64,000 bases of DNA from Catajapyx aquilonaris (lineage: Eukaryota). Position 1 is the first letter of the stretch; the number at the start of each line of letters is the position of its first letter. The stretch spans positions 62,001 through 126,000 of the forward strand of contig JYFJ02000049.1 of assembly GCA_000934665.2 (NCBI GenBank), given 5' to 3'. Below, piece by piece: positions 30 through 51,800 of the stretch. Under the pieces are notes generated by a model. The model ran no database searches. It was not told the DNA's origin and saw nothing but the letters and a program-made list of their open reading frames with translations. A program made the translations under genes and the position numbers.

Positions 30-553
30 TCGGGGAATGGCATCCGTCACCATCAAGAGGGTGTACGGTACGTGTGAAGGGTACGGGCACCAACCGACGA
101 CCTGTCTTATTCTTCTTCCCCCCTCTGATTGATCTCTCCACCTTGATCAGCCGATAATCCAAACGCACATTGTCCTCGACACTACCTGTGACACTATTTC
201 CCAAAAGATGACAACGCTCTCAGGGGGAAAAAAAAGGTGATGAGGCGGAATGCGTGCCTCCCACACGTGTCTTGCCCTTGGCTGAATAATTATTGTCATC
301 GGCTATTTGCTGGCCGGCCTTCGGTCGACTTCCCGATGCCAAATGCTGGGGCGTATGGACACCAGTTCAACGAACTGGGCGGGAATGAAAAAGGTGCGAG
401 TATGTCTCGAGTGTTGTCCCCAGCAGTGGGACAAGATGGAGAAGAATGCCGTGACTTTACTCTTTTGCACCGGTTGCTACCTACTGGGCACTCCAGGAGG
501 CCTTAGGGGGAATCGCCCTATACACATTCACGTGACTATCATTATATGAGCTT

Positions 554-628
554 AGCCCGTTCAGGCTGTCATGGTAAGATGACCCAATCGGAGTACACAA
601 CGGTCCTGAGTTCGATCCCCGGCGGTTT
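554..628 (+). pseudogene. Degenerate tRNA-like sequence / tRNA-derived SINE head
   Basis: A-box-like GGCTGTCATGGTAA (564-577). B-box/T-arm GGTCCTGAG-TTCGATC-CCCGG-CGG (602-625) is two transitions from GGTCCCGGGTTCGATCCCCGG. Partial acceptor pairing 554-559 with 623-628; no intact anticodon arm. Confidence 0.35.
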
Positions 629-3319
629 TAGCCATCTTGTCACGTCCTATAGCTTTAGGTGCTGCTGGAGGGACGACCCAAAGTGGCCACATTGGGTGGT
701 CCCTTCCTGTCCTATTATGCACGCCAGGATGATCACAGCCTGGCCTCTCATAATTCGATTCCACTCCTGTCCCCAAATTTGTCCGTCCGTGATTCATTGC
801 ATCCTAGGGGACGGTGAATAATTTTTTAAAAAGGAAAGTCTTTTTTTTTTATTTGAGCGAATACCAGGACGGAAGGCATGTGGTAAACGCGAGGGTCAAA
901 GGCACACGGAACGAATGATTTAATTTTACAATGTGACATGAAGCGTTGTCATCAGAAAGCAAATGAGGTGGAACTTGTTACCGCAGTCATTTTGTATGTG
1001 AAATATTGTGCATTGGCTGCACCGTGGTGTTAAAAAGTGCCTGGAGCTACGTTTAGTACAGGCCAACACTGTAATAAGCAGCCATATTACACTGCGCATT
1101 TTTTTTGCACAACCTTATAATTTTAGTAACCATCAGTGAAAACTTGCCTATAACCCATCATTTCAAATGAGTGAGCACTAAATGGTGATTTAAAAATTAC
1201 TCCCTTCCACCCAATATTCCACGTGCATATTTTACGGAAGTATTAACCACCACACCTCCCTAAGCCGGAACAAATTGGCGCCATTTGTATCAACATTACG
1301 TTCGGACGCAAGCACGATTTCACTTGGACAAAAATGATGATTGAGCCTGGCAGACTAACGAGTTACATTCTGGGCATCCGATGTCGATAACGAGATCAAT
1401 TGGCCAGGATTTTCACGTATGCTATGTTACAACTACACCGCATTATATGTTTATATGTAACCTGAAACATGCTGCTGCAGACATAAAATCGCCTTGACCC
1501 CTCGCCACAGCTGTAAATCCCTACACCAGACATTTGCTCTACGCAATGCTAGCTAAATAATGGACAGTAATGGTGACATACACACTTGGCCGTTACTTTC
1601 CTTCCAGTCCCTCCCCAGCATGGTCGCTCTGAGAGACCCAAATCCCCGGGCTGGGCTCTGGATTTGCTCAAGGAGACTAGTGTGATGGTCGAAGCAGCAG
1701 CCCAACCCATGGATACGGGCTTGCAGAGACGCTATCTCTAACTCGAGGAGAAAAAAAAAATCCCCGGGATTGACCCCATGCAAGATGCCGTGAAAATATA
1801 TTCCAAACTCAGATTCGCATTCATCCGTGAAGACCATTTCTCTACACACCCTTTACCGCTTTTTTTTTGACAATAATAATCCGCCATATAATGCAGATTC
1901 AATTATATGCACATATGTGGTTCGATTCCGCACGATCAATCCTCGTGTCCAAAGTTAGTTCAGAGCGGCTCGAATCCATTTCTGGTCTGGAAAAAATTGG
2001 GGGGGATTTTTTTTTTTTTTTCGGGGTGCGTGTGAATTTGAAGGATGCAAATGAAGGCATGTTGGAGTGCCAGCTTCGTGCGAGATGAATGGGAAGGGGC
2101 GGAGCCAGATCGCATCCTGGAAAAAGTATGGGGGTAGAGAGTAAGGGGGGATATTCTAGTTGGTGTACAGTACACGCTCTAGACACGAGCCGCATACACG
2201 AGAAATTCCGGTTTCAGACTGCTCTCTTTTTACCACCCCATTTTTTTCTTTAGTGAGTGAATGACGGCCTGGAGAAAATGAGAAAAAAAAATATATAATC
2301 CCTAGGGGTTGAAAAGCACGGCCGTTTCAATCAACTACGACTTTCAAAGTCAACCTGCTGAATAATCCTTCCCAAGGCCCGCCTTATTTATCTCACTTTT
2401 TATATGTTGCAGTATACAACAGCATGGTACTGCTTTTTTTAGGATTGAAGGGGACATGAACCTCGAGGGGCACTTGTGCCGTCGGAATATACGCCTATCG
2501 GACATTTCCCAAGTTTCCCCTCGAGACCCAAGTGCCCGCATGAAATAATACTTTTTCCCCAATTCTTGCCAATCCCGGATTCAGACCCCGTCGCCTGGAA
2601 ACGCTTCTCCCAGCAACATCAGTTTCCTTTACTGCAACCTCGGGATTCTACGCCGGTACCCAACCTCATTTGCCGCACTTTCTCGCTCTTTTTTCTTCCT
2701 TCTCTTTCCTCCCCCGCGATCAATTCCAAATCCGAATCTCCCCAATGTACACACAGGATGGTACAAAAAAAATAGTTGTTGGACAATTCTGTATAGGTTA
2801 GCGAGTATTAAGTAGGACAGTCGATACTTGGTTATATAAATAGCTGAGGACACCTGCCAATCACCGCGCGCGTAATTAATTTTCATTATAAGCTAACGGC
2901 ACTTCATGCCAGTCTTCATTCCAATAATTACTGCAGTAGAGGGGCATAATATAACCGGCTCCTTCATAAGCCCAAAGTTGAGCAAGCGGTGAAGCAGAAG
3001 AATCTAGCTCCAAACAGCATTTCCCATTTGTTATGTGGAAAATCCGTGTAAATAACCTCCTTCCCTGCTGTGTAAGTACAAAAGGCGGGCGGTTCCGCTT
3101 CTCCACTAATATGCAATTACGACCCAAAGTCGCCTGTTGGAAGGATGATGATAAATAAGCTCAGGGTCTTGGGAACAAGGAGTGGGTGGAGACCCGAATG
3201 ACAACAACAACACAGGTCAGTTTCCGTGTATATATAAACTCATCCGAATCTACGTCTTCCCCTATTTGAACAAATGGCAATGATCCTCGGATTCGCAGGA
3301 ATGCACCCTTAACAGTATA

Positions 3320-3328
3320 CACCCTGTA
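3320..3328 (-). mobile_element. Solo Tc1/mariner-type terminus (TA+CAGGGTG)
   Basis: caccctgta; reverse complement TATACAGGGTGTATAC. One of 8 exact TACAGGGTG copies in the window. Confidence 0.35.
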
Positions 3329-5447
3329 TATAGTAAGCCGGTGTGACGAACGAAAATGTCAGTGTCTGTTCATTTCCCTGAGAGCACGCAATTTGAGGTC
3401 ACCTGACACTCGAGTGTGACCTTTCTAGGTCTGTGCTCAGCCAGGGGTCTCCGCCTTCCCTTGTTTCCAGCAGGGATTCAGCTTCACAGGACGAAGACAA
3501 CGAGGCGAGATTGACACCCTAGATAAAGTGCAAGGCATGTTATACACTCGCCCAATCGCCCTCACTCTCTTGCCGTCCGATTCGTCTTGGACCGGGGCCT
3601 CTTTGACAGACACATTAATTGGGGCATGATTACGGAGCAACATCGTCCCCTCCGGTGCGCCATCTTGGTCCACTTCACAATCTGGAACCGGTTCAATTTG
3701 TATTTACTATGGATTGTCTGGGGGCCCACGGATGGGGCACCGCACCTTGGGCACCATCCACTCTAGTAAAACCGCCGGCCATCTTGTTAAGGAAGGTGGT
3801 GGGCTCAATTTCATCTGAATCCCCAACATGGCCCGGCGCCTCATCGACTTGGCCCATGAAGGAGAGACGCTCCTTGAGGAGCATCAAATAGAGTCACACT
3901 TGGTTGATTATTCTCGCCTTTCGTGGCAGATGATAATGTGGGCACATCCAATGTGCCTCCGAGGCCACTTGGGCTCAACCGACCGAACCAACCCCCTTTT
4001 CCATATACATTTTTTTTCTCTCTCTTCCTCCAAAAGAGCCTGCTCTTCTTGGGAGTTGCAAGCATGCAATTAGGCTCTGGCTCTCATAAGCCCGGAAGGG
4101 CTGCTTGCTCACTGTTCCAGACGCTGACGGGATTTCATGGAGAGAACCACCACCACCACCCTACAGAATATCCTCTTCTTCGGAACCACGCCTTCTCCCG
4201 TGGCCAACCTCATCTCTCGGGGCCTGTGTCAATGGAGTCTGAGGCAAAAGGGGGGACTTTTGGGGGGGCTCCCGTACTTGATTCCCCATCCCTCCAGATT
4301 ATTGGATGATGTCACCACTCAATCGATGGCCGCCAATTACCCGCAACTCTCTCCCCCTGCAGGCTCTTCTTCCTTTGGGGACCCGGATTCAATCTAACGG
4401 ACCATCCTATATACCACCAATTTCCACCACCCCTATACAACCGACATCTATAAGGCCGGAGCACCTGGATGCGGCTGCAGGAGTCGTATTACGTGATTGC
4501 CACTGTCCAATCAAATGATCCGGACCAAAGCTAATTTGAACTCGCTTGATGAGAGCCTCTTTCAGCCTATAGGAGCCACCACTGCTCCTTCAACCAATCA
4601 GATAGGACAACGTAGCAGTTAGTAGCAGTAACAAAAATCGCTGCTATTTTCATCTGGAGCCACGCACTCTTCGGCAACTTTGTTTCCTCCGGGTCCATAA
4701 TGGCGGTACGAGTGCGCAAAAAGCCCTGTCACTTTTGACACGAACCATGAGCTGGACTAGCTCATATTTTTCCCATACGGGCTGAGTCGTCCCCCTCACA
4801 TCCATCCATCCCTTTCTCCAGCAACAAGCTGCCCTGCAGCTGTTTTTGGGGGACCACCCAAATCATACTTATTCAATAGATCAACCCCATCGAATATTAC
4901 TGTCCGTTCACAGAGCTACGATAAACGGAAGGCAACGCAGCTCATCGACGAGTCAACGTTTACGTTATGGATTTATTTTTAGTCCCAAGGAAATAAGGGG
5001 CGTGGTAGCCCCTTCTTCTGGTGCCGAACCTCCGAAGAGAGGTCGCAGCATCCTCTTTTCCTCCCACATTCATCATCGGCAAGCAGCATCGTGCTGCCTC
5101 ACCCCCGGCATGGCACCACCAAAAAGAGTTCAATTTCGCCACCATGATTGATCGCTGCCACTTGAGAAACCCGACGCCCCGCATTGAACTGTTTGTCTCC
5201 GATAGTCCCCCCCTCCTACGAATTTCTGAACACTTTTCCTCCCCTTACAGGCCATGCCCTTTTAAACCCGGGCGATGTGTTTACAAACAGATTTGCACTT
5301 GAAATGGGTTCTTCGCGCCATCCTAGTGTCGGTCCGGACCATAAATCGTCTGAACATAATGAAACGGAATCGAAGTATGATGGAGTGAGGTAGTATAAAT
5401 AAATAAGTGGTAGAGTGGAGAGAGAGGGTTGGGTTGTAATCAGAGTA

Positions 5448-5464
5448 GGTGGTGGTGGTGGTGG
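5448..5464 (+). repeat. (GGT)5 microsatellite
   Basis: ggtggtggtggtggtgg read directly. Confidence 0.85.
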
Positions 5465-6718
5465 AAGTGGTAGTGAAAGGAGCCGGCTGCGGGCTTTTTG
5501 TCACCTCTGCTCCTCTCACCCCCGTCCCCATCCCCAACCCATCTCTTTTCCATTCCCTCACCCCATCTTCTGTGCTCTGGCTGTCTGCCCACAACCAAAC
5601 CGCCAGCCCAAAAGACCACAAGCCATCCCCATCTTGCTGATGGAGGCGCCAGATAAGCACCACAAGGGACGCAACAACTTGGTTTTAAAATCCGTCAATA
5701 ACCCGTTTTTAAACTAGGTGGCACCAAACAGAAAAATTGATTCAATCCCATCCTATACGAAACCTCTTTCGAACTCCCACACAGTCTTATAAGAACTACT
5801 TGAACTCATTGGAGCTAGAACTTCACAAAAATGCATTGGGGGAGAGACGACAAGTTTCACCCTCCAGCAGGCTCGACTATTATAAACTGGGAAGGGTGAT
5901 AACCTTTGAACGGCCACATGTTATTTCCAAGGCTGGAAACCATTTCAAGGTCGTAATTTCTGATACCCAGAGTCGACCACTACCTACAAATGGGTGTACC
6001 GGGTGAGCCCGATGCCCATCTCGAATTAGGGCAACAGAAGCGCCCTTGAAAGAAAATATATCCGCCTGAACAAACACTAACCCGGCAAGCAGGTGATTGC
6101 AATAGTTCTCCACCCACATCACTGATAGATTTTTTTTTTTCTGTGTGTTCCTGTTGTAGACCGGTTGGCAGTGAATTAAGGATTGAGTGGCACATCCCTA
6201 CTGCTTTCTTTTTGGTGAGGAAGTGGACACTGGGTGGGGGTGTGTGAATTGACAGACACTATTCAGCATATATCCCAGCCAGTGATGGAGGACATGAAGT
6301 CCGCTCAGGAGAAGCTGACAGGAGAAAGTCAAATCCGTCCTGTTCTTGAATGGTGAGTGACAACACGTGGGCCTAAAACGGCTCGTGACGGCTCCAGGGC
6401 GTGGGAAATGCCTCGTTTTTTTAAACCCCCCCAACTCCAATACTGTATTCCACCCTTGAGGACCAGGGCGTCTCCGGATATTAATGCCCTACTAATTGGT
6501 TCTCTGATTAATGAAATCGACCCCCGGTCCGGACGCAAAAAATTGCACTTGTAGAGCCCCCCCCATCCGTTGGCCACAATTAATGCCAGACAGCCCTATT
6601 TGTTTCACTTCGCTGCCGTCCGACAACATTCGTCTGTGTTGGTCCTACACCGCGCATATTCATCTCGTCCTCTAAGTACGTACGCCATCCCTCGGATCAA
6701 TCAGGATGCTGCTTTGTC

Positions 6719-6812
6719 ACTCACTCAGATTTATGTGACACTTCTGACAACAAATTTGTGCGTCCTTTTCGCCAAACGCCTCACCTGCAAGGAAGAAAAA
6801 TTTACATTAATG
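6719..6812 (-). other. Candidate recursive splice site with 60-nt cryptic exon (6784-6725)
   Basis: Minus strand: CATTAAT (branch-like, A at 6807) GTAAA TTTTTCTTCCTT GCAG|GTGAGG, with AG at 6786-6785 and GT at 6784-6783. Second donor CTGA|GTGAGT at 6724-6719. Confidence 0.6.
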
Positions 6813-7049
6813 ACATATTCACAACACATGGCCGCATCAACAATGCTATTGTCCTACCCTATTTATACCATGTATAAATCAAGAGGGCAGGTGCAGGTTA
6901 CGGGACAGCGATGCCAGCTTAGCTCCTAATTGGTCTGGCACCTTTTCTACCCTCAGAAAATGCACGAACATTCTCACCTAACCCAAAAGAGGCCGAAGAC
7001 CCCTTCTGGGCCAGGGTACAAAAAAAAATTTAGTTGAAAAATTGCGCCC

Positions 7050-7232
7050 TTGAAAATTTTTGGGGAAGGCAAGAAGCCCGCCAGCAGCTTCATGTCCAGA
7101 AGAAACAAGAAGGCGGTTGCAAAGCTTATCGGGGTCTGCTCCGACGGCGCAAACAAATGACGGCGGGAGGGCCCTTTGAGAAGACGCCGCCTTTTCCCCC
7201 GACACCCCCGTTCCACTTCATTACGCCACCAG
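7050..7232 (+). pseudogene. Possible highly decayed hAT transposase fragment
   Basis: Translates LKIFGEGKKPASSFMSRRNKKAVAKLIGVCSDGAN, then (-1 shift) MTAG, then HFIT(+1)HQ. Resembles hAT KLVGxCTDGAxxMTG ... HCxxH motifs but needs two frameshifts. Confidence 0.2.
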
Positions 7233-10200
7233 CCCTCCTCTAGGGAGAAAACCTCGGGTCTGCTGCAAAGCATTGCCTGTTTCAGACCATGCTGCGGGGA
7301 GGAGATGGGGATTGGAGTTGGGAGGAGAAAAAAAAGGCCGAAAAACTTCTTTTTTTTCACGTTTCTGGCTCGTCTTTTGGCGCAATCAGGGTGTAGTAGT
7401 GATGAGCACCGATGCGCACTGTCGGGTCTCGTCAGTCCCATTCACCGCAACATTGGGTGCTCCACGAATGGCAGATGCGTTGCTTTCGGACCGTGAGATT
7501 TCCTCAAACAAACTCCACTTTGTAAATGAGCAATCAGAAAGTTTCGTCTAGAGCTAAACCTGGCCTGAAGTATACACCGTACAGCTCTCTCCCCCCAAAA
7601 ATAATTATAATAACAGCAAAAAAGAAGATGTTCGCAGATGATTCTTGACGTTAACAATACAACGTGCATACATATAATTATATGCCTCATATTTCCTTGT
7701 GGGGGCGGAAAGGTCACACACTTCAAGCAGCAAAAATCACACCAAAAGAAAAAGCCGCTTCCTTTATAAAACCTGGCGTGCAAGGTGCGTTGAATCAGTC
7801 TGCCCATCGCAAAGTCAGATAAGGACATCCAATGTACAGTTTACAGAGCGCGTGTGTCCCACTTCCAAAAAGCCGCGAGAAAATCAATTCATCTTTACAT
7901 GCCGGAAAATTGTTTCAAGTGTTCCCATGTTCCCCAACAATATACTGGAAATTCTTTGCATCCCACCCGCTCCTGTTTTACAAGCCGATTAACAAATCTA
8001 AGGAAATGTAGCCTCCGGGGTATATGGGGTCTGGAGGAGAAAATTGGTGCACGCAGCCCCAGCATTTTCTTGCGAGGAGGCGGAAAAGAATGAATCAACC
8101 CCAAATCGAATTCACCATCAAAGAAGACAAGGGAAAAGCCCCTCAGGCCTTATTTGAAGTAAGAGGAAGAAGAATAAAAAAGGGGGGGAGGAGGGGGAGG
8201 ATGAGGAAAAAAATATTCTTTTGAAACACTCTTGTTTGACAAATAAAGTCGCCGGAAGCTCCTCAAGTGAGTGTGGAATGATGGAGGATGGCAGGGGAAC
8301 CAGATCTACATCAAAGGGTGGGGAGGGGTGAATTCAGGATTCTGATATTTGCATTTCATGAGATGGAAGTAAATCTCCGCCACGTCGAACTAAAAATAGA
8401 CCTTCCAGATTCATCATTTCCCGTCATTCTTGAAAACTGGAAGTGGGGGGAAGCAATGAAAAGCACATTATTACTCCCGTGGAAAAAAAAAAAAATAGAG
8501 TAGCAGACTATTGTTTTGCGCGTATTGACGAAATTCTGGAAAAAAAAAGATTCAACAATTAATGAGGGGAAGTGCATCGAAGTGTGGGAATGGCTAAAAA
8601 GGAGCTCGTACATCATCATGAGGTTCAGGCAAAGCGGAAAATAATGAGCCCGGAAGCTGCTGGCAGGCAGGCTGGAGGTCAAGATCAACCTCGGTCGCCA
8701 TTGACAAATTACTCTGGAGAAGTGCCTACGTAGCCGTCGGGGCTCGTAAAAGGCAACTCGGCACACATCCATGATTATAAAGAGCGAAGGGCTAGCCTCG
8801 GTCTGCATGGAGGTATTCGACCATCGCCGCTCGATTAGCCGAACAATGGCCCTTGTTAAGCGTAACAAATGAACTCCGCGGTTTCGAGCACTCGGTCCTA
8901 TCGCACGATAATCATTACATATACCGTTTCCACACTTCAAGCATTACGGCCAAGATGAAGATCGCGGATTAAAATGAATTTAGTGCCAAACATGCAATGG
9001 TACAGTTCGTCATAAATAATGTGCAAGCCGCTGAGGGGTAAAGTGATACAAAGTTTCCGTTTCCAGATTGGCAAGAGCAACTTTCCAATTCGGATCTGGT
9101 GCGAAAGAACATTGGCAAGAAGTGGTGCTGTCGTGCATTTCTGAGGTTATTTTGGGCGCAATTCATTAGACCGCTCATTGCTTCCGCTCTGGCTGATATA
9201 CCTTGCCACAAAGGTGGAGCTCTCATTAGTGCTAGACAACGGCCCCTGAATGAAACATTCGCCTCGACATGTGGGCCGAGCCAATTTAATTTGGACAGAA
9301 AAAATATATATACACGACACGTCGACCACAACCCGTCTTGCACATGTGCATGCCCACAAAGGACAACTAAATGCGGTTCCCACCCCCCCTATACTTATTT
9401 CGCGCGCAATTTTGTGCAATTAACCAGGTGGCAAACGCAGACCTAACGTACATAGCAGGCTTCTCTGACCGCAAAACCCTGACACCTGTCTACACGCTTT
9501 GCCAAAGAGAAAACAGCATCCGTTTGAAGGTGTCCCGAGGGCCGACAAGTACTCCAAAAATCAATTACGTCTGGAATTTATTACACACGCACGTACGGAA
9601 AAAGTCCGGATAAGAATGATTGATCATCCGGCAGTACAAGGGAGGGTTCCGGCACTATTTTGGACATACCTTACTAGAGCTAATCAGGTCCTTTCACGTC
9701 GTCCTTTGAGCGGTAAGAGGATCCCCGTATTCCCTACGTTCATTTTCCCCAAAGCCCCCGCGTGAAAACGCTTCCTTTTCTTCATGTTCCCCTCACCACC
9801 CTTTGGAGGATCCTTCCAGACTTCCTTCCTAGTGGGGCTTCACCCCCGAACATTGAGAAAAGGCTCACAAATCCAGTTCATCTCCAGTGCCTTTTTACCC
9901 CAACAGCACCCCCTTCATTGCATTGTACCCCTGCCATATGGTCACCATCGATTTCTTCTTATTAAGTCTTATTTCACAGCGATGTCAATCTGATGCAGCT
10001 GTGGGTTCAGACGGACAAAAGAAGCGACGGGACATGTTCCGACAGCGATACACATCAAATTTAATAAATAAAAAAAATCCAGATCTGTTGTGATTGGAGG
10101 GTCAGAACCACCTACTGCCCGATTGATCCACTGATCTGATCAGTTACGCGCAACAAGTGACGGCAATGACCCGGAACTAGAGGAAATGCTCACTTGGTTT

Positions 10201-10761
10201 GGACACAAGCTGATGGGTCAAAGGCCGAAAGGGGGATTGTGTGAGAAAGATTGCAACCCCAATTAGCGGGTTGGGTTCTTGAGAGATGGACACGATTCCG
10301 CAGCAGCCAATTAGGAGGTGGCCCACACAAAACCGTGCACTCACAAAAAAGGATGCATCCACACCTTTTTCCTTCCTTTCTTGAGGTGAATTTGAATGGG
10401 GGCACGCAAACACCTCTTGTGTCTTGTCACTCATTCCTGCCCGGAGTCATCTCCCACACGATATATTCGCACGGAACTGCAGAATCAGCCAATTAAACCC
10501 TCCCAATTTCATGTAACGAGCGGTTGTGATCAGAATTTTACTGTCGTTTAATTCGCGACCTGTTTCTCCCTACCAGCATACACAAAACGATGTTGCCAGA
10601 TTTGCTGGTTTTAAATCGGCAACCTCCAGGAAGGATGAAGCGCCTTGCTGACAGGATAGAGGGCGGTTTAATTGAATTTCAAAGTTGCTGTAGCAGGGGA
10701 AAAGTAATGTCCATGGAAGACACGCCCTCTAATTTTTTTTTCGGGGGAGAAGGCCCATCAG

Positions 10762-10783
10762 TTTTTTTTTTTTAAAAAAAAAA
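10762..10783. repeat. T12-A10 homopolymer junction (20-bp perfect palindrome)
   Basis: Twelve T (10762-10773) immediately followed by ten A (10774-10783). Confidence 0.85.
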
Positions 10784-13700
10784 GAGGGGGGCGTCAGGTG
10801 GGGCGGTATTAATCAGTTGTGACCTTGAAACGGGGCTCACCTTAAGAATAACGAAGTCCATGGTCGCTTTGGGCCCAGCTTCCAAACACCTCATTGTCGT
10901 CCTTGTCCTTGCTCACATCTTCCGGATTCTACCCCTTTCCCTTATTCCCTTACATAGCCATCTGGCCCTCTAGGCACCACCCCTCTTCCTGACTCAGCTG
11001 TGTATACACACCGCGGATATTGGCCTGCCAAGCGATATCCGCTTCTCCAAATATCCCCCGTCTCTGTCACTCAACCCTAGAGGGGAGCACCGATTAATCC
11101 GTCACTACACGTGCGGTTTGGCAAAGCAGGGTACACGGACAGACCCTTCCGTAGTGGTCGCGCGACTACGACTGGGCTCAGCTCCGGACCACAGCCGCAC
11201 TGGAGGGCTCCTGCGGCCTACAGACGAACCACAGCCCCCACCCCCCATGCCTACGAACTTTTTTTTTCTCTAGCTCTTCTGGGGTCTTTTTCCGAAGGGG
11301 CCGCTGCCCTCGTCGTTGGGGCGTGGAATCGTCGTCAGGGTGGTGGACTAGTGGAGAGGTCCATCTTCTGCATTATTGCTCAGGCTTGCTCCATCAAACT
11401 CACATAGGTCCATAAGTCACGTTGGGATTGGGAAAAAGTGTGGGTTGTTCCAATACTGAACAAGACGCGCTCGAGACGTGGTCCAAATTGGGAAAAAGCC
11501 CAATCTGATAAAAGTGAGGCAACAATCACTGTGAATGTTGTTGATAAACAATTCGCAAATTGCCGCCTCATCCACCTTGGATTATAACCTTGGGCACTCT
11601 ATCATCGTGTGTACAGTATACAGTACGATAAATATGCTGCACATTGATAATCCTCCATGTGAACCCAAAAAATTCTGTAATGAGGCGCAAGTGTCCACTG
11701 ACAGTACAGTTTACTGTAATATACTGCAAACTCCGGGGAAATCCACGCATTCATAATTCATACGGTAATTTTGCAAAATCTCAATAATGAAGTTAAGCGC
11801 AGAATATCGCAGCCAATTATGTGGCCTTTGACGTCTTCAAATTGCAAAAATTGAGTGAAGTAGCCAGCATATGAACGCCTCGCTCTAATTATGATACAGT
11901 ATATTTAAAAAAAGAAATTAACTAACTTTTCCTCTATAAAGTGGCCCATATTATACATTCATTAACATCTAAGTGGAGCTGTATTTGTAACTTTTGTGAC
12001 TGAAAATTGCACAGAGGGTGAAGTGCTTGTTCCTAATCACTGAGAGCTCTCTGCTCCCTAATGGACTAATCATTATTTAATGGACACACATCGGTGGACC
12101 ACTCAACACATGACGTCAGGAGTGCAGGCCATGCTAGGAACTGTACTCTATATATCCAGGTGCACATAGCAGTTGCCCTCCGGCGGTGAATTACAGTAAT
12201 TTCATTTCAACTATCAATTAATTACTATTTAACCGGAGAATTAATTCAATATTTGTAAACAATTATTAACTAATATATATCTTCCATCTCATTAGGCTAA
12301 TATGATGCACTGTATACACTCTAGTTGCAATGATATGGCCCATGACTTCTGATGATTGTATGTTTCTTTTGTCTCTAGGGACACTGCACAATTGCAATTT
12401 CTATAATGTATCACCGTGGGCCTTGAACACTCGAGCATTTCACACACTGAAAAGCATCTCCCCTCACGCAAACCTCTGAGAGTAAGGTAATTGCCAGCAA
12501 AACTAATTCATTATCACAGGGGCAGCACGACATAACCTTCGTCAGTCAAGCCAATTATGACAAAATGCATCACACTTCACCTCCAAAATGGGCCATTTGT
12601 AACCGAGATTTATGCTTTCCAGCCATATATGAGCAGGTGGCCACATATTAGGAAGTGACAGGCGAGCAAATGACCCATGTCCTGCCCAATGTCTGCTTAC
12701 TTTCTGCTTGCTTATGTGTACAAGAAGCTGCAGGGACTCGGAACGAATGTCGGTGAGAGCAGTTGGGCGTAAAATAAATTCCAACCCTCGAAATGTTTAA
12801 GTCTTCTCCCTTCCATGACCTTTCCTACCACGGGACAGCATATGCCTCGGATTATCTCCCAGACTCCTTTATTTATAGTCATCCAATTGTAATTTATGCT
12901 GCTTTCTTCTTAGGGGGGAAGTCGTGGGGGGAAAGACAGCAAAAAGAGCCAAAACGTCTTCCGAATAACATTGAACAAAGGCGGGGGTGTTGGACCCCAC
13001 CGGGTGCGAAAAGAAGGATCCTGGTGACACATCGGGGAAGGAAGTCTGCTTCAGGGGCTGACATCTGTTTTCTTCAGACCTGATTTGTCTCCGCCACGAT
13101 TCGAAACATTTGTCATCCAAACTGGGAACCATTTTTTTAAAAAGGTGTCCGTCTTAATTATATCCCAGATTTTTCCGGTAGGTCCACCGGTAGCCGTTTG
13201 TCCCAAGGTGCGCCCCAGGGGCAGCTCTACGGGCGGTACGATTACGCCTTTTTTCTCAAAGACGTCAAAGTCGAGGGGGCATTTCCATGGCAAAAGTTCC
13301 TCTCTTGCCGAGAGGGCGGGGTACGTAAGACTCGCCCTCTTTTGTCCCTCATGGTGCTTTTGTGGTCTCTTTTCTCTGTGTCCCCTTGGTGTCCCCAACA
13401 GCTTCGAAGGGGGGAAGAGGGGTTGGGCAGGACCGGAATAATCCAAGGAGGTGCTCGAATTGCTGCGCTTGTTACAAGTGACAAGGCTTGACATTTTTAG
13501 GGAGGGGGGAAAGTGTCGCGAATCGGAACGTCGGTTCCTCCTCTGCTTCTGGACATGTCTTGTGCCGCGGCATCAAAAGACGCCGGCAAAAGACTGAATC
13601 CGACGTCGGCGGCTGTAGCTTTCAGACAGGAAAAAATAGACATTCCGCAAACATCTGTTTCAACTTTCAGACCAGCCTTCGAGCTTGGCTTAGAAAAGTG

Positions 13701-15247
13701 CAGTGTATGTCACACATCCTGCTGCCAGGTCAATGCAGGAAATTGTGACCAATGTTTTTACGACGGGGAAGACCTCGCATTAGCAAGTCTAATGCCAAGT
13801 GGGATCTCCCTCGGCTTAAAGTGTGCATGTGAATCGGTGTGTGTGTTTACAAGCCAGCCCATCCCTCTTGTTCAGTCACATAAATTATTGGCGCGGTTAT
13901 CTCTAGACACACCGCTTCGGTTTTCTTCTTCAAAAAGCCGGCGATGTTGGATGTTGACGAGAGCAAACATTGTTAAGCTGGTCTTCCCCGGGTGCAGTTG
14001 AAAGTGCAGGCATTCCGGAATTCCAAACTGCCCCTTGCTATCGCCCTGGCATTTGGTCTGCAGAGCGTGCTTCGGGTGCAACCAGAATTGCTTCGAACCA
14101 GTCGTTTGTACGAGATTCACCCTAAAGCCAAGATGTGCCACTGCACATCTCTTCTGTATATCAAATTTTGCAATATTTAATTTTATGTTCGATGTCGGTG
14201 TGCGATATGAGCAATTTCGGTTTTTCATACAGCACAGCTTCTGGTTGTAAGTATGTGCTCGAGTGTACACTTTTAGTGCAAAATATGCCAAAAAATGAGC
14301 AAGTTGCGAGCAACTTTCTTCTTGAAACGCCCCGAGGCAGCAGAAGAGTCGGGCTCATTTCGTCGCCCTATGGCCTTTGACTTGCCTCCCTTGTCATTTG
14401 CATAAGTGAGTTCACGAAACTTGAAATGTTTCCTCCACAGTTTACTCCCATCCGCTTCTTTTTTGTGTCAAAATGTATACTTTCTGAACTCCCACGGAGC
14501 TGTTCAAACCCCATTTTTGTGCTCCCGTACTTGTATGCCTTCCACCGATTTTATTATTTTCCTTCCCTCTCAAACAGGTTTTTATTATCTCCTCCCGGGT
14601 CCCTCTCGCAGAAGGAAAACTCTCACAATGAAACCACACAGTTTGCCCAAGAGCTTTCCTTTTGTGGCAGCCAGCTATGGCTATGCTGCCCTAGAGCCTT
14701 TGTCCTGCTGCCTACTACATTCAGGCCTTATCAGCCATTTTCGTCACAAAGTGGTATCAATAAATTCCTTCCAGGGTTTGTCATAACAAAATCCTCCTGG
14801 CTAAGCCGCTTGGATGTCAGAAATGTTTCCAGGAAGTGCCGCGACTTTGACTTGCAGATTAGAGCCCAAAAGTTGAGGCGTCAGACTTGTATATTTCTTA
14901 CAAGTTCTTACATATCGAAACATGTCTGGAGGACATGGTAACAAAAGGAAGCTCCTTTCTCGTTTAAAAGGATATAGGCTCAATTTGCTCTCATCGTAAT
15001 CGAATCAATAGCGAGAGAGCTCGTCTCGAAGAAAACGGGGACCCCAGCTCTGTTATAAGAAAAATACAGTAGTAATATTGTTGGCTCCGTAATGGAATTT
15101 ACATTCGTAGAATTCCGTACTTCGTTGTATTAATCTAGTTTCTTGGCCCTCGAAATGCAATAATAGCATTCTTCCAATTGCTTTTGCGACAAAAGAGGTC
15201 GATAATACAGATTGAGCTCTTCCCGGATGTGCTGATATTAAGAAGTT

Positions 15248-15340
15248 TAGTGATCGTCCGTAAACCTGATTTTTTGGAATTTTTTTGACCCCCAGGTCAC
15301 AGTCGCTGGGTCAGACCCTCCCTTCTAAAATACGTTAGGT
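15248..15340 (+). mobile_element. Degenerate short MITE-like relic
   Basis: TAGTGATCGTCCGTAAAC...TTTTTTGACCCCC...CAGACCCTCCCTTCTAAAATACGT resembles, from memory, arthropod MITEs of the GGGGTCGTCCATAAA...TTTTGACCCCCTCCCC type. No paired TIR found. Confidence 0.25.
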
Positions 15341-16973
15341 TTTTTTCAGTTTTATTCCCTTCACAAAATATTGAATCAAGTACTGACTTCCTCTTGCCAG
15401 GGTAACGTACTTTACATCTACTGTACATTGTACTACAACATCGATATGATATGGCTAGAAACATAATGGTGACAGCATAATATCAGGCCTGTAAAGACAT
15501 AAAAAAGTGCAACCTTATTTCATTAGCCAGAAGGGCCCATAAATTCCGGATCTCATTGCTATTGGTACCCGGTAAAGCATCCATAAAGCCTGAAGCAGCA
15601 CGTATCGTAAAAGTCGGAAACGTTTTCCGGCGTATAGCAAAAAAAGCTATAGCGTCCGGCTATTGGACATGTCCACTTGAGTGGCAGGCCTCATTAGTCA
15701 CTCGCCAGGAGCACGCAAGAAAAGACCGCAATAATGTCCTCAGGTAACCCCATCCCCATGGCAGCTCGGTGGACCCTCATTAGGCAAAGAAGCCAGCCAG
15801 TTTCAGCTTATTTCGTGCTAAAAAGTCAATTTACCCAACGCGAGGGCACACCCAGCGAGCATCATCAATTCAGCAACAAGAAGAAGAAGCGCCTCGGAAC
15901 CGCGCCCTTTTCTTCTCCTTTTCTCTCTCTATAGGTTATACGAAGAACGTATAGTTAGTTAGCTGGTACTTTGAGCTCAGGCCAAGTTCGCATCTGCAGG
16001 AAATGATTTGTCAGAAGCCAACTCTTTTCGTGATGGATGAATAGAAACAATGCTACTCGTTAACTACACGGTTGGTTATTCTCTACTGTCTCCTCTTAAA
16101 GTTGGGGGTTCACATGGATGTCGTTGTGGTTGGGACGCTATGTTTCAAACACTCATCTGGTAGTGAAAATAATATTCCAGCTTACAAGCTCCTGCACACT
16201 CCTACTTCTTCGAAAAAGGTCGCAGTTCGCACACTTTACGACTGTTGCTCCAAAGGTTACAGCTGTTTATAGTTCTTGCACTGCCAACAGACGCACATTT
16301 GTCCGATCAGTGCACAACCGTTGCATGTCGTCACGTGAAACACGGTCGGGGTCTCGCACATAAAATAACACCGTGCCTTTGTACGTAAATTTTCTCCGGC
16401 AGCAGGTCACTCTTTGGTATAGCATTCAGGCTCTTGACCGCGCGGTCTTTTCTGGAAATCTGTGCCTCGACAGCTGAATCTATCTTCCGGGTATAGCAGC
16501 ATCTGAAGAGAAGCTGCCAAGTCGAGCACTTGGCGGAAAGCACTCAGATAGCCTCGGCCTCCGACAATAAATCCTGCCGACAAGCGCATCCATCGGACCG
16601 ATAGTCCTCTCCGTAGGGAAATTTCAGAACTGCGGGCAATTGCCGATAGCGAGAGTCATAATTCAAAACACCCCTTTTTTTTCCCTTCCCCACCCTGTAC
16701 CACCAGCACCATCAGACAGATTTTTTTGGAGGTTGGCAGCTGCGAGGTGGAATTTTTCGCACGACTTGGGCGGATATATCGAGGGGGGAGGATATTTGAC
16801 TGGGTACAGTAGTCCGTAAAGATGAAGGCTGAAGACAGGATACTCGTGTGGTGATGGATGACCAGCGTGTAATGGTAATGTTGTCCTGATAGCGGCTCCT
16901 GGCCTTCCTCGAGAGCCTCAATTGAGAGAAGATTGACGACCTTTTGGCCAAAAACCATTACGCGGTCTTTCAT

Positions 16974-17011
16974 ACAGGGTGTTCAGTAATAATGCCAATA
17001 TCACACCCTGT
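16974..17011. mobile_element. Collapsed (~36 bp) Tc1/mariner-type mini element
   Basis: ACAGGGTGT (16974-16982) and ACACCCTGT (17003-17011) form a perfect 9-bp inverted repeat. Left end TACAGGGTGTTCAGTAATAAT matches the reverse complement of 37179-37199 at 19/21. Confidence 0.55.
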
Positions 17012-17437
17012 GGCCAATGGGCTTCATCCTTATGACTTGAAATGGTTTTTTGGTGGCCAGGAAACTCATACTTCGCACCTATTGTAAGTCATCGCCTCTG
17101 GATTTCATTTGCATTGCAAGTAGGTCAATAGTTATTTACTGCACAAGAATTGAAAGATTGGTGAGCGATATATCAAACCAGCAGCAGTGTACGTACATCC
17201 CGTGACGTGTGAAGTGGACGGTAGTGTAATAGTTAAACACGGTCGAAGGCGCGTGAAAATAGCCGTAAAACTGTGGAGTCGAAAAGGCAAACTCTCACCA
17301 TTTTTGATCTCCTCTAATTTTGAAGGCAAACGAATATAAACCCAACCAACTATTACTAAATCATGATTTTCAATTTCCGGCGAGGACGCGTGTCCTATCC
17401 TATCCCAGTTAGGCACTTCAATATATCCTCGGGGAAT

Positions 17438-17448
17438 TAATCTGATTA
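17438..17448. promoter_or_regulatory. P3 paired-class homeodomain dimer site
   Basis: TAATCTGATTA matches TAATYNRATTA. Confidence 0.25.
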
Positions 17449-20400
17449 AGAGCTTTTAGAGCTTTTAGTCGGCTCTTTAATCTTGTAATGTAAATGCCCG
17501 TTATGACACAACTAATTTGCCTTTCGTCGTCGCAGTTACAGTTTGCTAATATTTTATGGCTCGAGACTCGAAAACGCGATTGTGAGCTTCGACACCAGAC
17601 GCGACGCCCGACCGTCACCAATATTATGGGAGTGGAAAAAGTGGCCTATATACGTATGTTTAGCAGTGATTCCGACAAAGTTCTATTATGGCATCTGTTA
17701 TGTCAAGCCAAAGTAAAACAACATAATAATAACAACGCCTTCATTTAAAATTAAGCATGCTACGAAGCGAGGAGGGAAGCATACCTGTCAGGATATTTTC
17801 CACTTGTGTTTGAACCGTATAATTCTGCCACTTGCACATAAAATGATATATCACTGCCCCTAAATTCACCCTAAAACAAAGTCGGTATTATTGCGACACA
17901 CAATGCCACGGCGAAGTGTGACCGTAACTCAAACGTACCACCTGCACATAACTCATTGCGCATATCGTACAACTTCCTCGTAAAACACCACGATAATAAA
18001 TAATCACAACCCATGTTGAATACACTAACAACACAAGATAAGGTTACAGGTTTCACTCCTTCCAGCAGAAGCAGGTTGGCAGTATTTCAGGATAAAGTTA
18101 TAGCGCTGCTGGCTCACCTGAATGTTACATAATATTCAGCCCGAGCTATTAGCCGCACAGTAGCTTAATCAGGGCAAGTAATTGGGGTCTGATAACTGGT
18201 TCCCGTGATAACACACGTGCTTTCGGAGCAGGCATTAATTTCCCCCTCGTAATCATTCTAAAAGGGAATCGGTTTTCTGAGCTGCCGCTTTCCCAGGTGG
18301 GGTCCTCCACCTTCAATTTTGGGAGGTGCGCCTTCATGACCGGAGGATGAGGATTGCAGCTCTTTTGATGGCGTCCGGCCAGAAATTAATTTCCTGGCCC
18401 GAGCGGACAGCCATCCGTTTGTATGTAGGCTGGTTGGGCAGCACCTTGACCCGACCGAGAGTCCCTTCCTAACGAGATGGACTATCGGTTAGGCCGAGAT
18501 AAAGCTGAGTTAGGCCAGCATAAATCAGGGGAAAGGCGCAGTAAGCCGTCTGGGATAACGAGCTTCTTGGTTTTGGGCTGCTGGTGCATGGGATAGGATA
18601 TCACTGGGGGTATATAGGTGTAAGTTCTTAGGAGGTGCATATATAGGGCTGTGTTGTATATGAGTGTGGGAGGCGATGCTGCCTCCTGGCTAAAAGGAGC
18701 AGATGGGCGCGATTGTTCAGACGCGTTTACAGTCACGGACGTGCGCCCTCCCTAAAAATTCAATTCCAACTCACGCCCCAAAAGCTGGCTCTTGCACGCC
18801 TCATTTCGAATTTATCATCCCCATCCGGGCGCATCTTAGATTTCAAGCGATGTGGCCAGCTCTGCTCAGAACCGGATGGCCCTTTCTCCCCTCAGGCATT
18901 ATTACATATCCCTGAATTTACTCCACTCGCAATTTGGCCAATTTATCTAAAATAGAGAAAATACTATGCGCAAATTATTTTCATCAATAATGCACACTCT
19001 TTAATCACATTATATTCAGAAACGATGTGCTCCAAGCAGTCTATAGGGGACGCCAACAAATTACGAGTATCGTTACCAGTATTATCCGAGATGGAGCAGA
19101 TCCTTTTGAGCGTAAGGAAGGGACTAAAAGGTTTCATAGGTCCGTAAGGGAAGGGGAGGAAGCTCAGATCTTATTATCCCCATTTCACCCTCTATTAGCT
19201 GTCGAGATGCTTCAGTGCCCGCCTAGTGCGTGCATTGGGAATGCGCTTCCAGGCCTCTCAATGATGTTCACTCCTTCAACAGAGCCTAAGCTAACTTGTC
19301 TGCCCAACAAGGGTGATATATGAAAGGAAACGCTCGAATAAATCTTGCCCGCTATCTGCCAGGCGAGGCGTGGGGGAAGCTTTATAATATGAATCGTAAA
19401 ATTATCATTTCAAGTTATTAAATCATAACTTACGATAAAAAGGAGGCAGCGAGAGGTGATGGGGGGAAAGAGGGGATGACGGGAGGACCTACTAGGCAAG
19501 ATACCAGGAGAAGAAGAAAAAATTGCTACTTGCCTGCCAGGAAGTGATTACATTTAATGGCAGGATGAGGAACTTTGGTCATTGGTTGAGAAGGACTTGC
19601 AAAAAAGGCCTCTGCTAGACGGCAATTTCATCACTGACTTAACTGATTAGATCGGAGCAGGCACAAGACCATGTTCAGACTAGCGTATAAGCACAAAAAG
19701 AAATAGGCTGCCGCATTAGTCATTTCATAAAGGAGGAACCGTGCCGACCTCCATCACTCTGTAATTAGCCCCCGTTATTACTGACTTCCCCTTTTCTCGA
19801 AAAAACGGCACTAACTCTTCTTTTGCCTAATGAGCACATTGTACGCAATCACGTCATATCATATCACTCCCAGGTGCTTTTCTTTAAACTGGTTACTGGA
19901 ATAAGCAACTCATTGTAGTGGGGGGAAAACCAGCTCAATTATTGCAACATGGCGGGTCTAACACCATTTTTCAAAAATATGACCTTCTACACACTCGGGT
20001 CTAGTTAAATTAGTTAAAACAGTGTGACTCATCCAGCGGTTAGAAAATTTGGTTTGTGGCCCCTGCTGGTGTTGCCTTCTCCCATCAAACAGACGCGTAG
20101 GGGCCAAGACACATTGCAGGACAAGCGTGAAAGACGAGCGCGCAAACACGTCTAATTGGCCATGAACGGGCTCGAAGGCAGACAAAACGCAACTCCCTAG
20201 TTTCATTCGAGCTATTAGCATCTTCGGGAGCAAATAAATTACTAGGGCGTGTCTCCCTTCCCGCCATTCTTCGTAGAAAGCAGACAAAGACAGATTTGGA
20301 CCGTGGGCTATATACCATCGAGAGAGTATTTATCCCCATTGCGTTTGGCGGACCTGTTGCGAGTCAGGAAAATCGGCGGAACCGGGTCTTGTGCCAGCCG

Positions 20401-35940: not shown

Positions 35941-36019
35941 CCTTACCTTGCTGACTCCACACATTTCCAAATATTGAACCGCAGCTTACCTGCAATATAG
36001 AGAGAGAAATCAGTTAGTG
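35941..36019 (-). other. Candidate recursive splice site (ratchet point) with 43-nt cryptic exon (35989-35947)
   Basis: Minus strand: CACTAAC (branch A at 36014, 24 nt upstream) TGA TTTCTCTCTCTATATT GCAG|GTAAGC, with AG at 35991-35990, GT at 35989-35988 and no intervening AG. Second donor CAAG|GTAAGG at 35946-35941. Confidence 0.7.
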
Positions 36020-45790: not shown

Positions 45791-46165
45791 TTCGATATAT
45801 CGAACAATGTGATCGAGATATCGCATGATCGATATTCTAGTATCGATATATCGCATGAGCGATATTCTAGTATCGATATATCCCATGCTCGATATAGAAC
45901 TGTCTAATATTGTCGATATATCGAACGCTGTAATCGACTTATCGAGATAGTGTGATCGGTTTCGATATTCTAGTATCGATATATCCCCAATGTGATCAAT
46001 GTATCGAGATATCGCATGCTCGATATCGATCTAATATTGTCGATATATCGAACGCTGTAATCGACTTATCGAGATAGTGTGATCGGTATCGATATTTCTA
46101 ACATTGTCTATATATCGAACCCCGATACCGACGATATATCGAATGAACGATATTATCGATATATC
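45791..46165. repeat. Complex CGATA/ATCGAT-rich palindromic minisatellite
   Basis: 30-bp tandem unit (45821-45850, 45851-45880, partial third). Identical 58-bp block at 45903-45960 and 46030-46087 (127-bp offset). TCGATATATCGA palindromes at 45792, 45913 and 46040. Five TATCGATA copies. Confidence 0.95.
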
Positions 46166-48858: not shown

Positions 48859-51800
48859 CCCAGGCCCCCCTTTTCCGTTTTTGGGCAGCCCACGTGGCAA
48901 GAGTCCCCCTAAACACCCCCGCACACACTCACTGGAAATGAGGGGGTCCGATGACCCGCTGCCTGGGCTGTTTGGCACGCGACTAACTCACTCCGGACGC
49001 CCGACGACGACGCCTCCGACGCTCCCTCCCCCGAACCACGCATGAACAGACACTCCTTCCCTCCTCGCTCTCCACCGCCACCAGCTAGCTTCCACACAAC
49101 CTATACTCTTTTTCAGATCCGCTCCGGTGCAAGCTTGCAATTTGGACAGCTCCAGCCTAAAATTCCCCTCCACTTCAAGGTGAAAAGTGGCCCGACTGGA
49201 ATCTGCAAGTAGGCACATCCATCCATCTCCAGGAGGAAAAACCCCATTTTTACACTTCAGATCACTTCCACGTCCAAGGTGGCCGGAGAAAACTCTCGCG
49301 AATTTGGAGAGAACTTTGTTTGCATTGTTATGGCAGGGTTATTACCCATATTAGGCCGACAAGCTGGTTTAATTTTAAGGACGGCAGGGCCTGTATTGAG
49401 GCGCATCAGAGCACGAGATATTAAGCGACAGGAGTATAAACGAGGAGCAGGAAGGGACTAATATCGACCTGGACTTGACATACACGTAAGTTGGCGTTGG
49501 CGCCGAGGGACTATTAGGGCTGCTTAATAGGCGCCCTGGCTGCTCTGCCCAGATGAAAGGAGGCGGCACCCCCCACACCAACTGCGGACCAAAGAGAATT
49601 ATTCAGGCTCTTCCCAAATCACCTTATAACCTCTCTCTGAGGCGGGTGCAAGTAGAGCCTTTGGTTTGGCCACAGACGCCGCCTGATTCCCTCCTTAACC
49701 CATCCTTTGAGTCGCTTTACTTGGCTGTCAAAGGTAGTATACAGTATGGTGGGGATCCAAAGTTTATAGTCGGTGGAACGAGCGCACGGTGTGGTCAATC
49801 CCAGCAGGCGTAACGCACGCCGACCACACTTTACGGCCCGTAAAATGCAGCCGAGTTGCTGTCCCGGCCAGCACACTAGGTCAGGGGCACAATCGGCCAC
49901 ATCAAATCTAACCGCCATTTCATTCATGATGGGGACATCAGGACTCACTTAAGGTGCCTTTTTTTCCCACAGGTTAAGTCCGCAAGGAACCAGGAGTAGC
50001 CTACTTCACCTATAAGCAGCGAGGGATTAAACAAGCCTGCAATTCGCATTCAAATTGTAATCAAGTCATAAACAATATTTCATCCTCTACATCCTCTCCT
50101 GCAGATGGCAGATCCCAGCGATGCTAATTCCGAAATCTGTTGAAAACAAAACGCTAACTGTGTGCATTTAAGCTGCAAAGCAAAACAGATGAAGTCTGGA
50201 GTTGGAAGTATATTTTGGACAAATTGCGCGGATTTATGAATTCGGCTTGCTTGGTTGATCAAGTTCTAGACCGTTGGGGGCTCGAGTTAATCTCTGGGTT
50301 GTAAGTGACACCGATTCCCAAGGGGAAGGGTGTCCTCGCCAATTATTGGCAACCTGTGGCGCAAATTGTGCAGATCTTTCGTCCAGGAGGCAGCGGTGGC
50401 ACAAAATAATTGAGATTTCCGGCATGAAATATTGTAATTGCCATCGCATGTGGATGTAATTACTGAAAACATTCGAGAGAATAATTGGCCCCTTCGCAAT
50501 TGCCTGAGTCAGAAGGCACTTCAATAAAATATGCCGCAGTGGGAACGTGCAGAAGTTTACCGGGGATAAACAAGTCTCCGCCATTAATCACTTGCGAGGA
50601 TTATTTACGGCGGGAATAATTGTGGAATGCGGAAAGCTCATTAGCAAAGGAGCCTTGTTAGCCTGTGGTAGGTTCTACAAGCTTGGTAGTCACTCCCTCG
50701 ACTGCCAGGCCGTAGTCAAACCAAGATTAGGTGTTGGAAAATTCAGCATACAATATACGCCGTATTGGGCTGTGCAGCACGTGCAGTAACCTATAGAGCG
50801 GGCAGCGGAGATTAACAAAATTCATGGTTTCCTTCATTGAACAAAGCACGGTAATACATATTCATTTGGCCATTGATTTTTGTGGCAAGGGTACTGAAAG
50901 ACTCGAGCGCAACCCTATTGTGGTCGATTACCATGCCGTATACAATAAAACATGCACTCTACCACCGTCCTCTGCAGTAATCCGTTTTAAAATCAACACA
51001 ATGTACAAGTGCAGTACATACATGCCAACATGCGTGCGTCTATAGTTTACAATAATATTCTTGTTCTACATATACTGGCCAACATTTCATTGCGTCTACA
51101 GTATATGAACTTAAATAATACAATATTCTTTGTGGAAATGCCACGTGCATCACTCTGTATTCTATTTACGCACCGTTTTACTCGTGTGCTACAACAATAA
51201 TTCTTGGTCTGAGAACCGCAATAAAATATCATCACGCCATAGCTGGTTAACGCAAGCCCTCCCCTATCAGCACCACTTTGACCCAAGCAGGAGTAAGGGC
51301 ATGAAAAAGTATCGCACTAAAACTTGCAAACATTACTCCTCATTTTCATAGGCTTCCCTCAGCAAGGCACTCCTGGGAAAAATCTGCTCCTAATGGCCGA
51401 AAAATAATAATCCGGTAAGATAAGCCACAATCTTGGCGGCGAAAAACCTGAGGCCTAATTACGCATATTTGAACTTACGAGGCCAATCCACAGGCGAGGA
51501 GGGAAATTGGGCGATTTTTTAACATTAGCGCTCGGTGGGAATGGCCATGAATAATCCCGGACTCTTTTCCTCCTATCCCTCCCTACTATTAGCAGCAGGC
51601 ATCTAGTCCCGGCAGAGCCATCCCATTAGGCCCCCCGCAAAAGGGCTGGTAGGTGGTGAGGGTGCCATGTGCAACCATATATAGGCTAGGGAGGGTATAA
51701 AAAGAGCCTCATTCAACCGCGACCTCAGCATCATCCCTCACGGATTAAACTTATGCATTTTCAGGGGAGGGGCGCCCTCACCTGACCTTATGCGCGGAGG

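Follow-up and report, generated by a model that had tools for sequence, protein, structure and literature searches.

On the minus strand of the 64-kb stretch of DNA analysed here (the window), the nucleotides from 6812 to 6719 bring together, in close succession, the signals of one 3' splice site and of two 5' splice sites. Read 5' to 3', the series begins with a branch-point-like CATTAAT (6806..6812), whose TTAAT places a putative branch A at 6807, 23 nucleotides upstream (-23) from the acceptor G; this is a motif assignment, and YTRAY-type motifs of this kind are present in 21% of comparable sequence windows. GTAAA lies directly between the CATTAAT and the polypyrimidine tract TTTTTCTTCCTT (6789..6800), in which twelve of twelve positions are pyrimidines and which has TT at -6/-5 (6790 and 6789). 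The tract leads into the candidate 3' splice site GCAG (6785..6788), with C at -3 and a predicted cut between 6785 and 6784; AG is absent from the 60 nt upstream of this acceptor, the closest upstream AG being at -62. Abutting the acceptor is GTGAGG (6779..6784), which would serve as the regenerated, or ratchet-point, donor and agrees with the intronic consensus at five of six positions, a figure that covers the intronic half of the donor, its exonic half being dependent on the upstream exon. A further donor, TGA/GTGAGT (6719..6724; here and below the slash marks the predicted junction), matches the consensus at six of six intronic and none of three exonic positions and would close a candidate cryptic recursive exon of 60 nt (6725..6784), which is 60% purine and has one open frame. 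Position 6785 is, in other words, a tandem 3'/5' splice-site motif with a prominent pyrimidine tract around its AG/GT, followed at +60 by the GTGAGT that would delimit a short cryptic exon; the per-site background for a GTRAG at +25..+105 is 0.106. A previous sequence-only reading had described the strand in these same terms, from CATTAAT through the tract and GCAG/GTGAGG to the GTGAGT donor, and its description proves exact, both in the 12/12 pyrimidines upstream of GCAG (6800..6789) and in the distance of "exactly 60 nt" to the downstream donor (6784..6725). A 22-mer spanning the 6785 junction had no match (0) in a metagenome scan.

The window has a G+C content of 43-51% in 2-kb bins and a CpG observed/expected ratio of 0.78, that is, CpG is not depleted, a level that speaks against a vertebrate. 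It holds 319 stop-to-stop open reading frames of at least 70 amino acids, 300 of which (those of at least 71 amino acids, the 19 shortest being left out) were scanned against Pfam; among these 300, none scored above a curated cut-off and two gave sub-threshold matches (DUF5575_N, E 4e-4; DUF5522, E 6e-3). The DUF5575_N match, in a 123-residue minus-strand frame at 19961-20329, scores 20.8 bits where the cut-off is 24.1, and it finds no homologues (0) among longer proteins; it was set aside as probably due to chance. Three-base periodicity is no different from that of a shuffled control (maximum 3.88 vs 3.77; 99th percentile 2.68 vs 2.75), Rfam recognises no family (0) in the window, and neither Pfam on the open reading frames nor periodicity detects a coding exon anywhere in the 64 kb. 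Since there is no recognisable coding sequence and no Rfam family, the window would belong to a giant intron or else be a gene desert; its lack of any detectable exon fits the former. A tandem array rich in ATCGATAT occupies 45810-46153, in which periods of 14-30 nt and of 127 nt are nested, the 127-nt unit being present in about 2.1-2.2 copies with 81-85% matches. A DNA read run from what is probably the source sample (X4) spans 400-20399, covering 30 of 30 bins at a depth of ~19-26; at 8421-8531 and again at 17593-17745, X4 gives a pair of alternative contigs, told apart by a few substitutions and short indels, that probably represent allelic variation. A run of unspecified type (X5) gave 0 contigs over 400-20399, a result that bears on expression in neither direction.

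The site at 6785 is accompanied by others on its own strand. At 35941..36017, the minus strand carries a CTAAC, a pyrimidine tract and TTGCAG/GTAAGC, with the acceptor G at 35990 and a putative branch A at 36014 (-25, again by motif only); the 43-nt segment that follows (35989..35947) is closed by a donor, AAG/GTAAGG, at 35946. On a graded acceptor-plus-donor score, 35990 is the top of 387 AG/GT sites taken over both strands and 6785 is tied for second place, its tie partner being a plus-strand site. Judged by its sequence, 35990 is a textbook recursive-type site and a more convincing one than 6785, and it is probably the "first" site implied by the sequence-only reading, which had called 6785 the "second". 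In both, TT occupies -6/-5, the base at -3 is C and a YTRAY motif lies upstream, its A being at -23 for 6785 and at -25 for 35990; at the four weaker AG/GT sites compared, neither the TT nor the branch-like motif occurs. A weaker sister lies at 49943..50040, where TTATAG/GTGAAG, with the acceptor G at 50010, is followed by a 61-nt segment (50009..49949) and by the donor TAA/GTGAGT at 49948; its pyrimidine tract is interrupted and its regenerated donor is without G at +5. From 50010 to 35990 the spacing is 14.0 kb, and from 35990, which is upstream, to 6785 it is 29.2 kb (29,205 nt). All three lie outside any repeat, each is unique and their sequences are mutually unrelated; the 43-nt and 61-nt segments are out of frame and the 60-nt segment of 6785 is frame-preserving. 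Closer to 6785, 193 nt upstream of it, the minus strand reads TAG/GTGAGA at 6977-6978, without TT at -6/-5 and without a branch-like motif; a chance open reading frame of 155 amino acids (6977-7441, no Pfam match) terminates within it. On the strength of these motifs, 6785 may be an RS-exon-type recursive splice site lying within an intron of more than 64 kb in a minus-strand gene, the best-supported reading and one to which we give a rough probability of 0.45.

The 60-nt segment could also be an ordinary cassette exon, be it coding, poison or UTR, that is spliced conventionally and in which the GTGAGG at the start would be incidental. Its acceptor is strong, the downstream GTGAGT is a perfect intronic match and at least the equal of the regenerated donor, its purine-rich body includes a GAAAAGGA stretch that may possibly act as a splicing enhancer, and its length is a multiple of three with one frame open. 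The claim that two frames of the segment contain stops while one stays open is correct for 6784..6725 (translation EAFGEKDAQICCQKCHINL); however, at least one open frame is found in 84% of all 60-nt segments of the minus strand, so that an open frame is what chance predicts and is uninformative. The complete open frame running through the segment measures only 29 amino acids (6806..6720); compared with Pfam, it gave no family (0) at E up to 10, and compared with the PDB only chance CxxCH matches to cytochrome c3, at E 0.66-3.3. The possibility that the peptide forms the end of a zinc-finger or LIM domain was considered and rejected, a six-frame pattern scan having revealed no LIM-type half-domains near the site. 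A cassette exon is further at odds with the lack of any other detectable coding exon in 64 kb and with the sister site at 35990, where the same layout has a segment of 43 nt that breaks the frame; because of that segment, throw-away exons fit better than coding ones. Poison or pseudo-exons in long introns are comparable in being short, unannotated exon-like units with good splice sites deep in non-coding DNA, yet they need no donor fused to their acceptor, whereas the fusion is present here and recurs at two same-strand sites. Taken together, we consider a conventionally spliced cassette exon unlikely.

Acceptor look-alikes are plentiful in the window, and a weightier alternative is that 6785 is a chance juxtaposition of an unused decoy acceptor and two donor-like hexamers, either in intergenic DNA or ignored within an intron. 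As many as 197 YAGs with at least 10/12 pyrimidines are found on the minus strand, and the second rank of 6785 among 387 sites is shared with a site on the opposite strand. Requiring at least 10/12 pyrimidines and AG/GTRAG leaves four minus-strand sites (35990, 10841, 6978 and 6785) and none on the plus strand, with 0.55-0.79 expected per strand and a count of four reached in 0.3-0.9% of simulations. Under criteria derived from the literature, namely a pyrimidine tract, TT at -6/-5 and YAG/GT with any donor tail, there are three sites on the minus strand (50010, 35990 and 6785) and none on the plus strand; with 1.3-1.4 expected and at least three found in 14-15% of simulations, this count is by itself not significant and the acceptor pattern alone is not enriched, the reversed-sequence control having four such sites, one of them with a downstream donor. 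Against chance stands the full layout, which comes three times on the minus strand and not once on the plus: a GTRAG donor lies downstream of all three literature-criteria sites, at 43, 60 and 61 nt, where 0.135-0.154 sites with such a donor are expected, and a count of three was reached in 0/1000 simulations at either order. A stricter layout (at least 11/12 pyrimidines, YAG/GTRAG and a second GTRAG donor at +25..+105) is found twice on the minus strand (35990 and 6785) and never on the plus strand, compared with an expectation of 0.006-0.011, and two occurrences were reached in 0/1000 simulations at Markov order 3 and 0/1000 at order 5. The sites had already been seen when the limits for pyrimidine content, donor distance and branch distance were set, and such partly post hoc thresholds favour the chance reading; two features known from published descriptions, TT at -6/-5 and a branch-like A in the reported range (here -23), played no part in picking 6785, and the presence of TT and of an in-range branch-like motif at the two best sites, as opposed to none of the four weaker ones, tells against chance. 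The motif at 6785 by itself is beyond chance only moderately, and the full layout is beyond chance. Chance juxtaposition is the main rival of the recursive reading and a serious one, if on balance somewhat less likely.

The minus-only occurrence of recursive-type sites is also the best indicator of the transcribed strand. With regard to base composition, G outnumbers C on the minus strand in 27 of the 32 2-kb bins, as T does A in 25 of them. According to the accessible part of one survey (PMC5786239), an excess of T over A is general on coding strands, while G exceeds C in vertebrate introns and C exceeds G in invertebrate ones; since C>G would be expected on the sense strand of an invertebrate, the G>C and the T>A of the minus strand disagree for such an organism. 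Strand skew was accordingly rejected, as ambiguous, as a proof of the transcribed strand. The skew is persistent throughout the window and may be caused by transcription or by replication. AATAAA occurs 21 times on the minus and 38 times on the plus strand (p=0.036) and AGGTRAG 10 and 2 times (p=0.039), each of these being one of 11 uncorrected tests; CTAAY, at 101 vs 132 (p of about 0.04), goes in the direction opposite to AGGTRAG and has no clear meaning. AATAAA, AGGTRAG and the excess of T over A point weakly to the minus strand as the sense strand.

The best-described counterparts of the proposed recursive site are the Drosophila ratchet points with cryptic RS-exons, with which 6785 shares the fused AG/GT acceptor and donor, the pyrimidine tract, the TT at -6/-5 and the C at -3. 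Of 197 fly ratchet points, 196 carry TT at -5/-6, compared with 44% of all introns, and the branch points of recursive lariats lie mostly at -36..-21 (Duff et al., 10.1101/006163), a range within which the branch-like A of 6785, at -23, also falls. On the minus strand of the window, only 53 of 439 pyrimidine-rich AG sites (12%) have TT at -6/-5. Fly recursive introns measure 11-133 kb and the segments removed from them 2.6-63.6 kb, with a mean of 18 kb (10.1101/006163); the spacings of 14.0 and 29.2 kb found here are within this segment range. Most fly introns of more than 40 kb contain recursive sites, according to the accessible part of Pai et al. 2018 (PMC6110457), and the window has several same-strand candidate sites tens of kb apart in DNA without detectable exons. 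In the sections available from Joseph et al. 2021 (PMC8605326), fly ratchet points are described as having a short cryptic exon of ~50 nt with a second donor, the lengths given being 53 nt for Ubx-RP, 56 nt for chinmo and 51 nt each for Ubx m1 and m2; the cryptic exon at 6785, likewise closed by a second donor, would have 60 nt. Fly cryptic exons are, in the words of the same sections, "generally out of frame" (PMC8605326), unlike the frame-preserving 60 nt here. A difference in kind is that fly sites have been defined partly by conservation and RNA, whereas 6785 is a prediction from sequence motifs. Of the two interpretations put forward in the sequence-only reading, a ratchet point and a re-spliceable microexon, the former agrees with this fly anatomy in every sequence feature compared except the strength of the regenerated donor.

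That exception deserves closer attention. In flies, the ratchet-point donor generally outscores the donor of the cryptic exon, although an exception is provided by hth, whose cryptic exon is skipped in spite of a weaker ratchet-point donor (both from the available sections of PMC8605326). At 6785, the downstream GTGAGT beats the regenerated GTGAGG on its intronic match (6/6 vs 5/6), its exonic side, TGA, being poor; by consensus matching, the regenerated donor is not clearly stronger than the downstream one, and it is of a type that is rare in the fly table as far as this could be consulted. Counted as string matches in the accessible text of the supplementary table of Pai et al. (PMC6110457), which are not curated site counts, there are 92 occurrences of AGGTAAG and 65 of AGGTGAG; AGGTGAGT has 51 matches compared with 2 for AGGTGAGG, that is, GTGAGT against GTGAGG, and both AGGTGAGG matches sit in rows without the high-confidence flag. 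In the same portion of the table, TTGCAGGTAAGC, which forms the core of 35990, has 21 string matches and TTGCAGGTGAGG has 0, and the flank strings of 6785 and 35990 match none of the motifs apart from one unrelated TTCCTTGCAGGT, so that a link to any particular fly recursive site was rejected. That GTGAGG is atypical among the fly recursive sites in this part of the table counts in favour of chance juxtaposition.

Should 6785 function as a recursive splice site, U2AF and U2 would bind the TTAAT branch site (-23) and the predicted high-affinity 12-nt tract containing the TT; together with U1 bound at GTGAGT (6724), 60 nt downstream, they would define the segment as a small exon in an instance of exon definition. 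The upstream exon, probably already re-spliced earlier at 35990, would then be joined to 6784, and after such a step at 35990 this joining would release ~29 kb as one lariat. The junction would recreate a donor made of the exon end and GTGAGG, in competition with the GTGAGT at 6724. If the recreated donor won, the 60 nt would leave with the next intron segment and the mRNA would bear no trace of them, as is the case for a "zero-nucleotide" ratchet point; if GTGAGT won, the 60-nt exon would be included. Every step of this mechanism is inferred by analogy with Drosophila; the motifs, their positions and their statistical rarity are features of the window itself. Skipping of the candidate 60-nt exon is expected as the main outcome, but because GTGAGG is less canonical than GTGAGT, inclusion would be likelier than at a typical fly site. 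Two further minus-strand sites with the same arrangement, against none on the plus strand, strengthen the ratchet-point reading.

A variant in which inclusion matters is an expressed recursive microexon comparable to Ubx mI/mII, which would contribute 20 residues with a CxxCH to some isoforms and be re-spliced out elsewhere. Ubx mI and mII (Hatton et al. 1998, via the available parts of PMC8605326 and 10.1101/006163) are small frame-preserving exons with a donor consensus directly after the acceptor, and because they start with this consensus they can be kept or re-spliced out. The 60-nt segment is like them in that its length is divisible by three, as are the 51 nt of Ubx m1 and of m2, and in that GTGAGG stands at its 5' end; with two donors of comparable strength, the outcome could be regulated. 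The Ubx microexons, of 51 nt and with GTAAGA, are on the other hand documented as coding in known isoforms (in the same parts of these sources), whereas the 60-nt exon is a prediction. All the points raised against a cassette exon (chance-level frame, no Pfam match, no other exon, a 43-nt sister segment) apply here as well, and expressed recursive exons are a minority in flies, with fewer than 50 of them compared with more than 500 intronic ratchet points in the available sections of Joseph et al. 2021 (PMC8605326). The proposal of a frame-preserving coding microexon has thus gained no positive support, its open frame being at the chance level and its peptide having no Pfam or PDB match beyond chance, and we hold this interpretation to be highly improbable. 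A broader version, in which the giant intron, here of a non-model invertebrate, would be removed through at least three recursive exons (50010, 35990 and 6785) whose own donors equal or surpass the regenerated ones, with the 60-nt unit as a regulated CxxCH microexon, is a long shot.

Vertebrate RS-exons were reportedly described by Sibley et al. in 2015, and Drosophila ratchet points with cryptic RS-exons, so it is said, by Joseph et al. in NSMB in 2018. In the accessible part of Blazquez et al. 2018 (PMC6224609), vertebrate RS-exons undergo exon definition before they are joined to the exon upstream, as is proposed for the 60-nt segment at 6785; the recursive 5' splice site created in this way competes with the exon's own donor, with the exon junction complex acting as a repressor. 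Most vertebrate RS-exons are annotated and included, unlike the candidate described here.

In terms of what it stands for, 6785 is a good prediction, made from motifs, of a device already known, and implies no new mechanism. Recursive splicing, by which long introns are removed stepwise, is well documented both for Drosophila and for vertebrates; in other insects, it is hardly mentioned in the literature searched, as far as the accessible portions of these sources go. Were the microexon interpretation true, the 60-nt segment would constitute a second case like Ubx mI/mII, outside Drosophila. If 6785 and its two sister sites are used, they would reveal a giant recursively spliced intron in another, probably invertebrate, genome. 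The site at 6785 would then also provide a test case with a weaker-looking regenerated donor, bearing on how the competition between the two donors decides between the skipping and the inclusion of a recursive exon.
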